A stretch of DNA of 26,932 nucleotides from Octopus sinensis (lineage: Eukaryota), in the NCBI RefSeq assembly GCF_006345805.1, contig NW_021836398.1, positions 1 to 26,932 on the forward strand, given 5' to 3'. The notes under the pieces are model-generated. The model was not told the origin of the DNA and made no database searches. It saw only the letters and a program-made list of their open reading frames with translations. Within the stretch, counting starts at the first letter, position 1. Every line of letters begins with the position of its first letter. Both the position numbers and the translations under genes were made by a program. Below, piece by piece: positions 9,488 to 22,800 of this stretch.

Positions 9488-10118
9488 TGCAGGAGTTGTA
9501 TGGTAAAAAGCTTGCTTCCCAACCACATGGTTCCAGGTTCAGTCCCACTTCATGTGCACCTTGGGCAAGTGCCTGATAGAATAAGTACTAGGCTGACAAA
9601 GAATAAGTCCTGGGGTCGATTTGTTTGACTAAAGGTGGTGCTCCAGCATGGCCGCAGTCAAATGCCTGAAACAAATAAAAGAGTATATATATATATATAT
9701 ATATATTCTTTGACTTGTTTCAGTCATTTGACTGCGGCCATGCTGGAGCACCACCTTCAGTCAAGCAAATCGCCCCCAGAACTTATTCTTTGTCAGCCTA
9801 GTACTTATTCTATCGGTTTTCTTTTGCTGAACTGCTAAGTTATGGGGACATAAACACACCAGCATCAGTTGTCAGGCAACGGTGGGGACACACACGCACA
9901 CACATACATACATCATACATATATATATATATATATACATACATCTACATATATACGACAGGCTTCTTTCAGTTTCCATCTACCAAATCCACTCACAAGG
10001 CTTTGGTTGGCCCGAGGCTATAGTAGAAGACACTTGCCCAAGGTGCCACACAGTGGGAATGAACCTAGAACCATGTGGTTTGTAAGTAAGCCACTTACCA
10101 CACAGCTTCTCCTCCACC
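9486..10118. mobile_element. Tail-to-tail family A SINE pair: internally deleted + copy (9486-9682) and full-length - copy (9706-10118)
   Basis: Match to the family A consensus; the + copy jumps from GGGCAAGT to GATAGAATAAG at about 9570. Confidence 0.9.
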
Positions 10119-10186
10119 TAACATATATATATATATACATGTATATGTACACACGCACACACACACATATATATATGTATATATAT

Positions 10187-10925
10187 ATACTAAGCAATAA
10201 AGGGTTTAGCAACGAATTGCCTTACCACATACCGAATTTAGAAATAGCAGTCAAAGAGTTATAGCTATTTCTTCTACTAAAAAGGGAGATCTCAGTAAAA
10301 ACAGCAATTGGAAGGCAGACACAAACAGGTAAGAGAGAATGAATTGACGGCAATCTATCATACAATTTTAAGTTATCTACGGACGCACGTTTCGAAATCA
10401 AGTTTTTAGGAAAGCATAAGAATTAAAATTAAATAATTCTACCTTACCAAAACTTCTTTTCTCTTCAGCGTAGAATACTATAATCATAAATGATTATATA
10501 TTGAATTTTGAGATACTAGAAGGCACCAACTCAACTCAGTATCAGAGCGAGCTAGAATCCGCAACTAGTATCACCAAATTCAATGTGTGAATGAAAGATT
10601 GTGTCACCACCCTTCCCACCCGCGTGTAGCCAAAAAGATGCTGTGGTCATCTACTGAGATAAAAATGGTATCCGTAATAATGAAGGGTGAAATTAATTAA
10701 TTTGGAATAATTATCAATTACACCAAGTAGTCTTCGGCATGTAAAAGCCTCATTCGAGGAAAATTTAAGTAATACTAAGCAATAAAGGGTTTAGCAACGA
10801 ATTGCCTTACCACATACCGAATTTAGAAATAGCAGTCAAAGAGTTATAGCTATTTCTTCTACTAAAAAGGGAGATCTCAGTAAAAACAGCAATTGGAAGG
10901 CAGACACAAACAGGTAAGAGAGAAT
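10187..10925 (-). mobile_element. Non-autonomous hammerhead-bearing element with 154-bp direct terminal repeats (period 585 bp); retrozyme or Penelope pLTR-like
   Basis: 10187-10340 equals 10772-10925 (ATACTAAGCAATAAAGGG...GGTAAGAGAGAAT); (TA)n on both sides; hammerhead at 10376-10474; no recognisable ORF. Confidence 0.85.
10376..10474 (-). ncRNA. Type I hammerhead ribozyme, canonical core
   Basis: Minus strand: TCTACG (stem I) CTGAAGA GAAAAGAAGTTTT...AAAACTTGATTTC (stem II) GAAA C GTGC GTC| CGTAGA (stem I); predicted cleavage between 10382 and 10381. Confidence 0.88.
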
Positions 10926-11339
10926 ATATATATATATATATATGTGTGTGTATATAATATATATATGTATATATATATATGTATCCAAGCAACATTTTAA
11001 TATACAAATACATTCTCTCTTTGTTCGAAACAACTTCTTTAATGCACCAATGTACCAATATACCAATATATACATATATTCGTCTCCATCTATGTCTCTC
11101 ACATCATCGAAATAAACCAATATACACATTAGTCTTTTGTAATGTCGTTGCTAAAGCAAGCCTTGTATACAAATATATAACTATTTGTCTTTTCTGAAGC
11201 TTCTCGCAGAGTGTTATGAAATATATGTTTATGTTCCAAACACCATTATGATATACCAATATCTTTTATGTATTCTGGACACCATCTCAATATATTGATG
11301 TACGTTCTATGTTCCAAACACCATCGCAATCCTCCTCTT

Positions 11340-11453: not shown

Positions 11454-11867
11454 GAGCTGGCAGAAACGTTAGCACGTTGGGTGAAATGCTTAGCGGTATT
11501 TCGTCTGCCGTTACGTTCTGAGTTCAAATTCCACCGAGGTCGACTTTGCCTTTCATCCTTTCGGGGTCGATAAATTAAGTACCAGTTATGTACTGGGGTC
11601 GATATAATCGAATTAATCCATATGTCTGTCTTGTTTGTCCCTTCTGTGTTTAGCCCCTTGTGGGTAGTAAACAAATAGGTATTTCGTCTGTCTCTACATT
11701 CTGAGTTCAAATTCCACCGTGGTCGACTTTGACTTTCATCCTTTCGGGGTCGATAAATTAAGTACCTGTTATGCACTGGGGTCGATATAATCGACTTGAT
11801 TCACATGTCTGTCTTGTTTATCCCGTCTGTGTTTAGCCCCTAGTGGGTAGTAAAGAAATAAGTATTT
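11454..11867 (+). mobile_element. SINE family B with tandem duplication of its 183-bp body
   Basis: GAGCTGGCAGAAACGTTAGCAC head; GGTATTTCGTCTG at 11495 and 11678 begins two similar bodies. Confidence 0.9.
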
Positions 11868-12077
11868 CCCCATGGCCAGACACGTTTTTCACACATGACC
11901 GGAAACTAGCAACCCCGCCTGTTGACAGTGATGCTCATTTACAACCACCATATGATGTCTAGAGACAAGAACACATAAGCACATGCATGCACACATATGT
12001 ACATATGGAAACAGCTGTAAGCCTATAATGCACAAATAAATTTATAATGACCATTACTTATGACAGTTTTCTCATAT

Positions 12078-12304: not shown

Positions 12305-12345
<41 letters not shown>

Positions 12346-12349
<4 letters not shown>

Positions 12350-13797
12350 CTCTTTACTACTTGTTTCAGTCATTTGACTGCGGCCATACTGGAGCACCGC
12401 CTTTAATCGAGCAACTGAACCCCGGGACTTGTTCTTTTGTAAGCCCAGTACTTATTCTATTGATCTCTTTTGCTGAACCGCTAAGTAACGGGGGCGTAAA
12501 CACACCAGGATCGGTTGTCAAGCAATGCTAGGGGGATGAACACACACACACACGCATATATATATATACATATATTCGACGGGCTCTTTTCAGTTTCCGT
12601 CTACCAATCCACACAAGGCTTTGGTCGGCCCGTGGCTATAGTAGAAGACACTTGCCCAAGGTGCTACGCAGTGGGACTGAACCATGTGGTTGGTAAACAA
12701 GCTACTTACCACACAGCCACTCCTGTGCCTATATGTATATATTACTCTTTACTACTTGTTTCAGTCATTTGACTGCGGCCATACTGGAAGCACCGCCTTT
12801 AATCGAGCAACTGAACCCCGGGACTTGTTCTTTTGTAAGCCCAGTACTTATTCTATTGATCTCTTTTGCTGAACCGCTAAGTAACGGGGGCGTAAACACA
12901 CCAGGATTGGTTGTCAAGCAATGCTAGGGGGATGAACACACACACACACGCATATATATATATACATATATTCGACGGGCTCTTTTCAGTTTCCGTCTAC
13001 CAATCCACACAAGGCTTTGGTCGGCCCGTGGCTATAGTAGAAGACACTTGCCCAAGGTGCTACGCAGTGGGACTGAACCATGTGGTTGGTAAACAAGCTA
13101 CTTACCACACAGCCACTCCTGTGCCTATATGTATATATTACTCTTTACTACTTGTTTCAGTCATTTGACTGCGGCCATACTGGAAGCACCGCCTTTAATC
13201 GAGCAACTGAACCCCGGGACTTGTTCTTTTGTAAGCCCAGTACTTATTCTATTGATCTCTTTTGCTGAACCGCTAAGTAACGGGGGCGTAAACACACCAG
13301 GATTGGTTGTCAAGCAATGCTAGGGGGATGAACACACACACACACGCATATATATATATACATATATTCGACGGGCTCTTTTCAGTTTCCGTCTACCAAT
13401 CCACACAAGGCTTTGGTCGGCCCGTGGCTATAGTAGAAGACACTTGCCAAGGTGCTACGCAGTGGGACTGAACCATGTGGTTGGTAAACAAGCTACTTAC
13501 CACACAGCCACTCTGTGCCTATATGTATATATTACTCTTTACTCCTTTACTTGTTTCAGTCATTTGACTGTGGCCATGCTGGAGCACCACCTTTAGTCGA
13601 ACAAATCGACCCCAGGACTTATTCTTTGGAAGCCTAGTACTTATTCTATTGACCTCTTTTTGCTGAACCACTAAGTGACGGGGCGTAAACACACCAGCAT
13701 CAGTTGTCAAGCAATGTTGGTGAGGGGTGGGGGTGGACACACAAACACACACACTCAAATACACACACATATGTATACACATATACATATATACGAC
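12346..13797 (-). repeat. Head-to-tail array of family A SINEs: three 396-bp copies plus one truncated copy
   Basis: Identical ORFs at 12515/12911, 12684/13080 and 12733/13129 (offset 396). Confidence 0.95.
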
Positions 13798-14336
13798 GAT
13801 TACCCCTCCAAGGTTCTGTTAGCTATGAAACATATGTAGGCTGGATTTTATCTAGTCCATTTCCTAATTTTTGATAAATATATATCTACTTTTCTCTTTA
13901 TTGCCCACAAGGGGCTAAACAGAGAGGGGACAAACAAGGACAGACAAAGAGATTAAGTCAGTTACTGCTACTTAATTTATTGACCCCGATAAATTATATA
14001 TATACTCACACAAACATATATGCATAAAGATAGATTGATAGATAGGAAGTGAGAGAGAGAGAGAGGGAGAGGCTTATGCTTGCTGATTGATGCAGGTATG
14101 GCTGTGTGATTAAAAGGTTTGCTCTCTGACAATAGGGTTTCAAGTTCAGTTCTCCTGCATGCCACCATGGTCAGGTTACTCTTCTGCAGATCTGGGCCAA
14201 CCTGAGGCTTATAAATGAATTTCATAGTTGAAAACTTAAAGAAGCCCATTATGTGTATATATATATGTGTGTGTGTGTATGAGGAGTGGGGCTGAAATTA
14301 TATATATATACTAGTAAAATTTCCCTAGTATATACA

Positions 14337-14532
14337 TATCAGTCGCCATGATAGATTGTTAGCTACTACACACATTTTTTTCTCTCCTTGTTTCTTTCTG
14401 TGTCCCTTTCTGTAGAAGAGCATAGGCTCGAAACATAAAAGACTTTTTCTATTCCTGAGCGTTATACTAATATATCTGTTTTCTTTGTACACCACCTGTC
14501 TTCATCATTTGTTTTTTTCATAAACTCTCCCT
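14337..14532 (+). mobile_element. Short (TA)n-flanked element with minimal hammerhead-like motif at 14402-14443 (duplicate at 16133-16174)
   Basis: CTTT-CTGTAGA-A-GAGC-ATAG-GCTC-GAAA-CA-TA-AAAG, then TTCCTGAGCG. Confidence 0.65.
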
Positions 14533-14567
14533 ATATATATATATATCTATCTATATATATATATATA

Positions 14568-14698
14568 AAATTGAAAAAGTTTGTCGTAGGTATAAGATAC
14601 CATAAGCAATTATAAAAATGGAGAAAAGATGTTACATCTTTTCTCCATTTTTGTAATGCTTATGGTATCTTTATACCTATGACAAACTTTTTCAATTT
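14568..14698. repeat. About 130-bp near-perfect palindrome (duplicate at about 16297-16427)
   Basis: AAATTGAAAAAGTTTGTCGTAGGTATAAGATACC...AAAAGATGT-T-ACATCTTTT...GACAAACTTTTTCAATTT. Confidence 0.95.
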
Positions 14699-14830
14699 GT
14701 TATTTTCATATTCTTACTGCTTCCTCTAGCAGGATATCTCTGAATATGATGAATTTTTATTAGAAATTATTTTCTCTCTTTTTGGACTCCTCAAAAAGTT
14801 CACATATTCTACTTGAACTTATTTTTTCTC

Positions 14831-14864
<34 letters not shown>

Positions 14865-16555
14865 TACTCTTTACTACTTGTTTCAGTCATTTGACTGCGG
14901 CCATACTGGAGCACCGCCTTTAATCGAGCAACTGAACCCCGGGACTTGTTCTTTTGTAAGCCCAGTACTTATTCTATTGATCTCTTTTGCTGAACCGCTA
15001 AGTAACGGGGGCGTAAACACACCAGGATCGGTTGTCAAGCAATGCTAGGGGGATGAACACACACACACACGCATATATATATATACATATATTCGACGGG
15101 CTCTTTTCAGTTTCCGTCTACCAAATCCACACAAGGCTTTGGTCGGCCCGTGGCTATAGTAGAAGACACTTGCCCAAGGTGCTACGCAGTGGGACTGAAC
15201 CATGTGGTTGGTAAACAAGCTACTTACCACACAGCCACTCCTGTGCCTATATGTATATATTACTCTTTACTCCTTTACTTGTTTCAGTCATTTGACTGTG
15301 GCCATGCTGGAGCACCACCTTTAGTCGAACAAATCGACCCCAGGACTTATTCTTTGGAAGCCTAGTACTTATTCTATTGACCTCTTTTTGCTGAACCACT
15401 AAGTGACGGGGCGTAAACACACCAGCATCAGTTGTCAAGCAATGTTGGTGAGGGGTGGGGGTGGACACACAAACACACACACTCAAATACACACACATAT
15501 GTATACACATATACATATATACGACGATTACCCCTCCAAGGTTCTGTTAGCTATGAAACATATGTAGGCTGGATTTTATCTAGTCCATTCCTAATTTTTG
15601 ATAAATATATATCTACTTTTCTCTTTATTGCCCACAAGGGGCTAAACAGAGAGGGGACAACAAGGACAGACAAAGAGATTAAGTCAGTTACTGCTACTTA
15701 ATTATTGACCCCGATAAATTATATATATACTCACACAAACATATATGCATAAAGATAGATTGATAGATAGGAAGTGAGAGAGAGAGAGAGAGAGAGGGAG
15801 AGGCTTATGCTTGCTGATTGATGCAGGTATGGCTGTGTGATTAAAAGGTTTGCTCTCTGACAATAGGGTTTCAAGTTCAGTTCTCCTGCATGCCACCATG
15901 GTCAGGTTACTCTTCTGCAGATCTGGGCCAACCTGAGGCTTATAAATGAATTTCATAGTTGAAAACTTAAAGAAGCCCATTATGTGTATATATATATGTG
16001 TGTGTGTGTATGAGGAGTGGGGCTGAAATTATATATATATACTAGTAAAATTTCCCTAGTATATACATATCAGTCGCCATGATAGATTGTTAGCTACTAC
16101 ACACATTTTTTTCTCTCCTTGTTTCTTTCTGTGTCCCTTTCTGTAGAAGAGCATAGGCTCGAAACATAAAAGACTTTTTCTATTCCTGAGCGTTATACTA
16201 ATACATCTGTTTTCTTTGTACACCACCTGTCTTCATCATTTGTTTTTTTCGTAAACTCTCCCTATATATATATATATATCTATATATATATATATAAAAT
16301 TGAAAAAGTTTGTCGTAGGTATAAGATACCATAAGCAATTATAAAAATGGAGAAAAGATGTTACATCTTTTCTCCATTTTTGTAATGCTTATGGTATCTT
16401 TATACCTATGACAAACTTTTTCAATTTGTTATTTTCATATTCTTACTGCTTCCTCTAGCAGGATATCTCTGAATATGATGAATTTTTATTAGAAATTATT
16501 TTCTCTCTTTTTGGACTCCTCAAAAAGTTCACATATTCTACTTGAACTTATTTTT

Positions 16556-16623: not shown

Positions 16624-17449
16624 TCTTTACTCTTTACTCTTTTACTGTTTCAGTCATTTGACTGCGGCCATGCTGGAGCACCGCCTTTAGTCGAGCAAAT
16701 CGACCCCGGGACTTATTCTTTGTAAGCCCAGTACTTATTCTATCGGTCTCTTTTGCCGAACCGCTAAGTGACGAGGACGTAAACACACCAGCATCGGTTG
16801 TCAAGCAATGCTAGGGGGACAAACACAGACACACAAACACACACGCACACATATATATACATATATACGACAGGCTTCTTTCAGTTTCCGTCTACCAAAT
16901 CCACTCACAAGGCATTGGTCGGCCCGGGGCTATAGCAGAAGACATTTGCCCAAGATGCCACGCAGTGGGACTGAACCCGGAACCATGTGGTTGGTTAGCA
17001 AGCTACTTACCACACAGCCACTCCTGCGCCTATATATATATATATATATAGGTGTAGGAGTGGCTGTGTGGTAAGTAGCTTGCTTACGAACCACTTGGTT
17101 CCACGTTCAGTCCCACTGCGTGACACCTTGGACAAGTGTCTTCTACTATAGCCTTGGGCCGACCAAAGTCTTGTGAGTGGATTTGGTAGACGAAAACTGA
17201 AAGAAGCCTGTCGTATATATATATATATATTTGTATGTATGTATGTGTGTGTATCTGTGTTTGTCCCCCCAACAATACTTGACAACCGATTCTGGTGTGT
17301 TTACGTCCCTGTAACTTAGTGGTTCAGCCAAAAGAGACCGATAGAATAAGTACTAGGCTTACAAAGAATAAGTCCTGGGGTCGATTTGCACAACTAAAGG
17401 CGGTGCTCCAGCATTGCCACAGTCAAATGACTGAAACAAGTAAAAGAGT
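16622..17449. mobile_element. Head-to-head pair of full-length family A SINEs (- 16622-17030; + 17051-17449) separated by (TA)10
   Basis: Both match the consensus over about 400 bp in opposite orientation. Confidence 0.93.
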
Positions 17450-22045: not shown

Positions 22046-22446
22046 ACAATCGCCATATTGTTTTTATGGCTGCTTTTCCATTTGTTGGCAAAAGTGGAAC
22101 AAAACTCTTAGAGGCAGAATTCTGCAGATGGATGCCTTCCACGTCACCAGCCTTTACTTGTTTTCATTGTCAAGTAATCTTTATTCCATTGAAGTCTATA
22201 TGTCAGCAACCACTAAACTGCAGCATGTACTGTAGACAGGGGACACAAATCTGGTAACCCCATATCACTAACGAGGATGTCATGCACAGAAAACAGTCGA
22301 CATGTATGCACATATGTACATACACACACATGTGCATGCACACACAGACACACACACACAGACACACACAGTGCTGGTGCCATGTAAAAAGCACTGATTC
22401 TGGTGCCATATAAAAAGTGCACATGCCGGTGCCACTTAGGAAGTAC

Positions 22447-22800
22447 CGTGTTGGTGCCACATAAAAAGCACCTGTGCTGGTGCCGGGTAGAAAGCACCCA
22501 TGCTGGTGCCACATAAAAAGCACCTGTAACAGTACCGGGTAGAAAGCACCCATGCTGGTGCCACATAAAAAGCACCTGTGCCGGTGCCGGGTAGAAAGCA
22601 CCCATGCTGGTGTCACATAAAAAGCACCTGTAACAGTACCGGGTAGAAAGCACCCATGCTGGTGCCACATAAAAAGCACCTGTGCCGGTGCCGGGTAGAA
22701 AGCACCCATGCTGGTGTCACATAAAAAGCACCTGTAACAGTACCGGGTAGAAAGCACCCATGCTGGTGCCACATAAAAAGTACCTGTGCTGGTGTCATGT
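22447..22800 (+). repeat. 52-bp minisatellite (about 7 copies) inside a family C element spanning about 22370-23020
   Basis: CATGCTGGTG(C/T)CACATAAAAAGCACC-TGT(GCCGGTG|AACAGTA)CCGGGTAGAAAGCACC at 22499, 22551, 22603, 22655, 22707 and 22759; the family C tail follows. Confidence 0.95.

Follow-up and report, generated by a model that had tools for sequence, protein, structure and literature searches.

The element at positions 10187 to 10925 of the 26,932-nt stretch of Octopus sinensis DNA analyzed here (the window) is a non-LTR retrozyme and as such an unremarkable representative of a known class; its family has left in the genome the "tail" pattern of Penelope insertions on a non-coding unit. 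From insertion ends counted across the genome, we propose, with a probability of roughly 65%, that a single RNA of 593 nt, probably a circle, serves a Penelope-type enzyme as the template of this retrozyme. The octopus family provides counted genomic footprints of the long-assumed copying step of retrozymes. With defined start sites, a candidate hairpin and candidate enzyme donors in one genome, it makes the question of a circular versus a multimeric template directly testable.

The features of the window copy are collected in the table. The direct repeat described in the first-pass annotation is exact over its 154 bases with a period of 585, TA microsatellites lie on both sides as it had stated, and the absence of an ORF was confirmed, the longest stop-free frame being 66 aa when the unit is read as a circle in all six frames. 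The copy begins near nt 44, counted from the preceding lap's cut, and ends in zone A (see below), where its final bases are common to the (TA)n target. The 585-nt unit holds as the period of this copy, the family monomer being 593 nt (consensus of 40 monomers), with one subfamily near 600. Compared with the consensus, the window copy lacks 8 bases and is free of substitutions; the deletions may in part be an assembly error. The size had been thought unusual and is not, since 593 nt falls within the reported range of retrozyme consensus lengths, 51-972 bp in the available part of bioRxiv 10.64898/2026.07.22.740005; circles from 150 to over 1000 nt are described in the accessible text of PMC7229834. 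A tRNA scan found none, and the Rfam miRNA matches were rejected as TA-repeat artefacts. Elsewhere in the window, we noted a 396-bp tandem (12335-13716; 3.5 copies, 96%), a near-identical duplication of ∼1.7 kb (13533-15400), the abundant dispersed repeat of the left flank, here present as a head-to-head pair (16814-17267), and minisatellites or tandems at 22371-22794 (periods 26/52/104 bp), 11495-11868 (183 bp) and 1888-2045 (67 bp).

Table. Features of the retrozyme copy and its flanks (window coordinates; dot, no strand assigned)
Feature	Positions	Strand	Remark
Whole insertion, single arm, 1.26 units	10187..10925	-	98% identity to many genomic copies
154-bp repeat, 5' copy (truncated extra lap)	10772..10925	-	154/154 identical
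154-bp repeat, 3' copy	10187..10340	-	154/154 identical
Type I hammerhead	10376..10474	-	predicted cut between 10382 and 10381
Zone A, putative principal priming site, 191-195 nt past cut	10187..10191	-	82/199 arm ends at nt 195
Zone B, putative second priming site, 287-305 nt past cut	10662..10685	-	internal in window copy
Predicted hairpin just before zone B	10683..10728	-	candidate recognition element, function inferred
Left flank, TA-rich microsatellite ending an abundant dispersed repeat (∼9915-10119)	10120..10186	.	
Right flank, (TA)n microsatellite	10926..10984	.	

Copies were sought across the 2.7-Gb genome. A search with the unit listed 1,131 candidates, of which 131 were scored; these lie on many contigs and are mostly 95-100% identical. 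Exact searches gave 271 matches for a 21-mer spanning the cut site, 2,239 for one 21-mer upstream of zone A, and 819 for A259T, the marker of a variant subfamily. The copies are dispersed and non-coding, lack a protein of their own, and consist of tandem units that each hold one type I hammerhead. The earlier description of the element as retrozyme-like, non-coding and recently mobile is supported; a single local duplication is ruled out by the 131 scored copies and the 2,239 21-mer matches. Arrays reach ∼19 units, the largest insertion observed holding ∼10.5 + 8.9 units (L168/L169). A sister family ∼70% identical retains the hammerhead core, the tandem period and the end geometry described below. 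A second young tandem hammerhead family has a period of ∼534 nt, 733 candidates, and a different ribozyme and body (L210:5764-6875, L175:3357-5000 and L255-L264); a further relative lies at L217:6920-7600.

The minus-strand hammerhead (10474-10376) has an intact core, with the motifs CUGAAGA, GAAA and GUC and a 6-bp stem I, and its cut is predicted after 10382, 41 nt ahead of the 3' repeat, exactly where it had been placed before. The type I assignment, the core motifs and stem I of the earlier "canonical type I hammerhead" stand; the word "canonical" does not, since stem III has just 2 bp, formed on the near-palindrome ACGUGCGU, with ACGUACGU or ACGCGCGU in relatives. The Rfam model Hammerhead_1 scores the motif at 21.3 bits (E 0.02), short of the gathering score of 34, and a hammerhead was not among the matches of an Rfam scan of 5 kb; stem II is an extended hairpin, which is passed over by the model. 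The near-palindromic stem III could permit pairing between two copies, and the available text of PMC6765202 ties a minimal palindromic stem III to Penelope-like elements (PLEs) and to tandem-dependent cleavage. Further type I hammerhead motifs with a palindromic stem III were seen in other repeats, at L213 (reverse 774-1000 and 1490-1716), L211:351 and L179:2621.

The circular monomer is predicted to fold at -158 kcal/mol, versus -120 ± 6 kcal/mol for 40 shuffles (z -6.4). Among 17 monomers, double-sided changes are found at 16 of the 123 consensus pairs, including pairs of stem I, which joins the two ends of the monomer; most of them trace back to a single divergence of two related groups, so that they lend support without being independent counts. 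At L067:3050-3056 (G000:C3:15349813 and 15350242), a run of three neighbouring A>G changes lies in stem II of both arms and could be an RNA-editing scar. Scars of A-to-I editing across the family were rejected, since A>G changes are no more frequent than T>C changes (8 each) among the 49 array-wide rare variants.

The insertion ends were mapped in 133 insertions, with positions counted from the ribozyme cut. Forty-three of these (subset C1) stem from the first 100 matches of the 21-mer upstream of zone A (at 148-168) and form the least biased sample, although they depend on an exact match to that 21-mer, whereas the 56 obtained from the first 100 matches of the cut-spanning 21-mer and the 34 obtained from the best matches of the unit search are biased to long copies. 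The map leaves out L157, L158, L168 and L169, whose arrays overrun the extracted stretch, as well as overlapping duplicates, and it counts the locally duplicated L044 twice. The 3' ends are confined to zone A (183-206) or zone B (284-308), ∼100 nt apart, and every one of these ends lies on a TA or TAT common to the target; the 5' ends are scattered over the whole unit. This distribution contradicts the earlier prediction of circularly permuted copies with variable start points, since in the 133 insertions only the 5' ends vary.

The two zones are used as a pair. Sixty-seven insertions are head-to-head inverted, 65 are direct and 1 is complex. The inverted ones combine zones A and B in 56 cases, as opposed to A/A in 2, B/B in 0 and other ends in 9 (p 6e-15 for 56/58), and the pairing is as marked in the least biased subset (24 of the 26 inverted insertions of C1). 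Direct single arms end mostly in A (54 of 65; B, 8; other, 3). The same A/B pairing is seen in the 12 loci viewed of the dissimilar 534-nt family, in which the base of the hairpin preceding zone B (ACUUGGUG...CACCCUU) also recurs; we consider this hairpin a candidate recognition element. Contigs of X2 and X8, runs that we guess to be RNA, join (TA)n at 10674-10683; ends, strand and level cannot be read from such contigs. No run on record as RNA was listed as containing the unit, and no empty-site joint was among the matches listed in the run contigs. In short two-armed insertions, both arms start ≤20 nt apart in 13 of 17 cases (permuted, 4.3), compared with close starts in 7 of 50 long ones (permuted, 5.0); two enzymes may have stalled together, or the joining may have occurred at palindromes. 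These short inverted insertions lie among L117-L172, and in three of the 13 the arms start at a palindrome near nt 72.

Several observations suggest that the two arms of an insertion share one template. Fold-back copying cannot yield 23 of the 55 A/B insertions, even with a free register, implying that both arms were primed separately. The arms carry the same haplotype in 90 of 98 informative comparisons and throughout in 21 of 28 insertions, the other 7 having at least one discordant site, when permuted arms agree at a mean of 0.08 and a maximum of 0.38 (5,000 permutations). Units inside arrays likewise share haplotypes, and the three-base change of L067 occurs twice in the genome by exact search, these occurrences being the two arms of that locus. 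The B arm passes zone A in 50 of the 55 A/B insertions, which requires strand displacement on one RNA or else two sibling RNAs. Much of the uniformity within insertions could be due to parent arrays that were themselves homogeneous. Indeed, locus-private variants lost weight as a proof of rolling-circle copying upon genome-wide checks, with 1 of the 5 sample-private variants checked confined to one locus and T488A and C565G present at 3 loci each. The 209 sample-private variants comprise 15 found in some, not all, units and 172 single-unit variants, a class that includes sequencing error. At L081:2356-3834, the two 3' units lack 61 nt present in the 5' unit, and the deletion is accompanied by C188T in 2/3 units; this locus misfits pure single-circle copying.

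The ribozyme junction bears on the form of the template. Within C1, the cut is crossed by 25 of 69 arms, in 40 crossings, and no arm starts at nt 1 without crossing. Junction indels are found at 3 of 153 junctions (median site, 1.4%), and the read-through of the cut is clean for up to ten laps. The first-pass idea of a greater-than-unit-length cDNA is borne out, copying having run through the cut site, and the crossings together with the lack of a junction indel excess make a simple linear monomer an unlikely template. A107G gives 19 matches at 5 loci on 4 backgrounds and fills the arrays at L101 (8/8 units), L249 (5/5) and L247 (2/2), whose background is absent from every other locus listed; this favours a bottleneck through a monomer.

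The most serious competitor, which we nevertheless regard as unlikely, keeps the Penelope-type twin priming but has as its template a linear multimer that is left uncut after transcription of a tandem array in the genome, with a slow or idle hammerhead and no circle. Such a template fits the clean junctions equally well; uniform arrays 8-10 units long are available as potential parents, most of the variants checked are common to several loci (A259T being the example with 819 matches), the units of L081 are heterogeneous, and, in the available text of PMC11167929, uncut RNA is the main substrate of a PLE enzyme in vitro. However, copying of a linear multimer only shortens arrays and leaves their growth unexplained, as it does the filling of whole arrays by A107G on separate backgrounds with no listed parent. 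The conservation of the hammerhead core and of stem I across families 70% identical also counts against this template.

Considerably less probable is a cut linear monomer on which the enzyme jumps at each lap from the 5' end of the RNA to its own 3' end, held by stem I. Such a template would explain the monomer bottleneck and the shared haplotypes as well as a circle does, 4 of 199 arms start at nt 3-4, and L063 has a 4-nt junction loss. With R2-type enzymes, template jumps usually leave a pile-up of 5' ends and junction indels; here there is neither a pile-up at the cut nor the excess of indels, and the starts at nt 3-4 coincide with a TA microhomology.

Our current working model is built on a circular template. 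Tandem copies would be transcribed, and the hammerhead, probably acting as a dimer, would cut out monomers that would then be ligated. A GIY-YIG endonuclease would cut both strands of the (TA)n target, and from each target end a cDNA would be primed at an internal position of the RNA, zone A for one end and zone B for the other, via TA/TAT microhomology. The two cDNAs would proceed in the same direction around the template, halt at some point, and then be joined 5' to 5'; survival of a single priming, mostly at A, would leave a single arm, as in the window copy. More tentatively, with somewhat less than an even chance, we suggest that a dimer of the reverse transcriptase (RT) sits on one RNA circle made by the ribozyme, at two structurally marked sites ∼100 nt apart, from which both subunits roll round. 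The two ends of the cut (TA)n might each prime one subunit, with up to ∼19 units made per event. If true, the dimer on a circle would explain the partial tandems, inverted arms and tails of PLEs by one mechanism, and the A/B pairing, the single haplotype and the shared hairpin would be its genomic record.

Candidate enzyme donors exist in the Octopus sinensis genome. A Pfam GIY-YIG scan recovered young Neptune-like elements whose ORF2 (775-781 aa) combines an RT with a GIY-YIG domain at its C terminus, and which display (TA)n flanks and, as read by eye, hammerhead-like motifs near their 3' ends. Those at L208:674-4377, L212 and L213 have two overlapping frames, of 479 aa (no Pfam match) and 781 aa (GIY-YIG and RT domains). 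In those copies of the 781-aa family that were read, the core of the hammerhead-like motif is degenerate; the motif of the 775-aa family looks intact at L218. No sequence shared with the unit was found by BLAST and a 17-monomer profile at 45 GIY-YIG loci (of 5,029 candidates), and the unit relatives at L198 and L191 are, by the same comparisons, separate old insertions. The unit has no ORF bearing RT and GIY-YIG domains and is not an autonomous Penelope, Neptune or Naiad element. The first-pass annotation had named fixed ends combined with an attached RT/GIY-YIG ORF as the mark of an ordinary Penelope terminal repeat (pLTR); fixed ends were found, and an ORF attached to the unit was found in none of 200 loci.

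That the unit is the pLTR of a rare autonomous PLE, and the copies its extreme 5'-truncated products, is in our view very improbable. All the insertion hallmarks are those of PLEs, the family was sampled in part, and retrozymes are derived from pLTRs in the available text of bioRxiv 10.64898/2026.07.22.740005; but what lies upstream of a unit is another unit, up to ten times, and never coding sequence, and in the 5 cases inspected among the 8 of 200 loci with nearby RT/EN fragments, (TA)n and unrelated DNA intervene. The unit likely descends from a pLTR, a descent that does not make its copies truncations. Least probable of all is that arrays and inverted arms arose at the DNA level after insertion, by local duplication, fold-back synthesis or gene conversion: fold-back is geometrically possible in 32 of the 55 A/B insertions, arm starts are close in most short insertions, and L081 and the duplicated L044 and L107 resemble later duplications, but four of the 23 insertions that exclude fold-back have non-overlapping arms, and this origin predicts neither the strict A/B pairing nor, in three families, a period that matches the distance from one ribozyme to the next.

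The octopus family resembles the metazoan non-LTR retrozymes, as these are described in the available sources, in its tandem units, which are non-coding, low in GC (35%) and provided with a single type I hammerhead, in its range from monomers to multimers, in a monomer length within theirs, and in its proposed mobilization by PLEs. This mobilization, through circles, is presented as still to be shown in the accessible parts of PMC7229834 and bioRxiv 10.64898/2026.07.22.740005, the latter reporting cleavage in just one of nine Xenopus retrozyme dimers. Circles and cleavage have been demonstrated for some species according to these texts, whereas the octopus family is known from genomic copies; conversely, the available portions of the non-LTR retrozyme papers are without an anatomy of insertion ends, while in the octopus family two priming zones, two arms and haplotypes were counted. 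The words "Octopus" and "cephalopod" are absent from the main text of PMC7229834. In the literature outside subscription journals, Repbase, Dfam and supplements, where the family may be catalogued, we found no cephalopod retrozyme, nor any report in which a non-coding unit shows counted A/B pairing together with a common haplotype and read-through over several laps. Plant LTR retrozymes have a type III hammerhead in LTRs, a primer-binding site, a polypurine tract and a 4-bp target duplication; this identity is ruled out by the type I hammerhead, the variable-length repeat and the (TA)n flanks.

Close parallels also exist with PLEs that carry a pLTR and a tail. The available text of 10.1101/2021.04.23.441226 describes PLEs that have inverted 5' copies and bear a tail at just one of their ends, and the octopus insertions share with such elements, as far as the sources at hand describe them, the 5' truncation, partial tandems, inverted 5' copy, one-end tail and AT-rich or (TA)n targets. 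The octopus unit differs from them in having no ORF and a tail of ∼100 nt instead of 30-40. The non-autonomous Chlamys elements of the same text, such as MRC1, are like their autonomous partner at the 3' end, whereas no such likeness to a partner was found for the octopus unit; their clade is there reported to be without canonical hammerheads, whereas the octopus unit has a hammerhead. In the accessible part of PMC11167929, the PLE tail is traced to two internal start sites with extension of both strands, and a dimer is predicted. The anole enzyme studied there starts at a site non-homologous to the target and at the same site on both strands, whereas the octopus ends lie on TA microhomologies and almost always use different sites. 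In both systems, as described in these sources and as proposed here, reverse transcription begins at an internal site of the RNA that lies downstream of a hammerhead whose stem III is palindromic.
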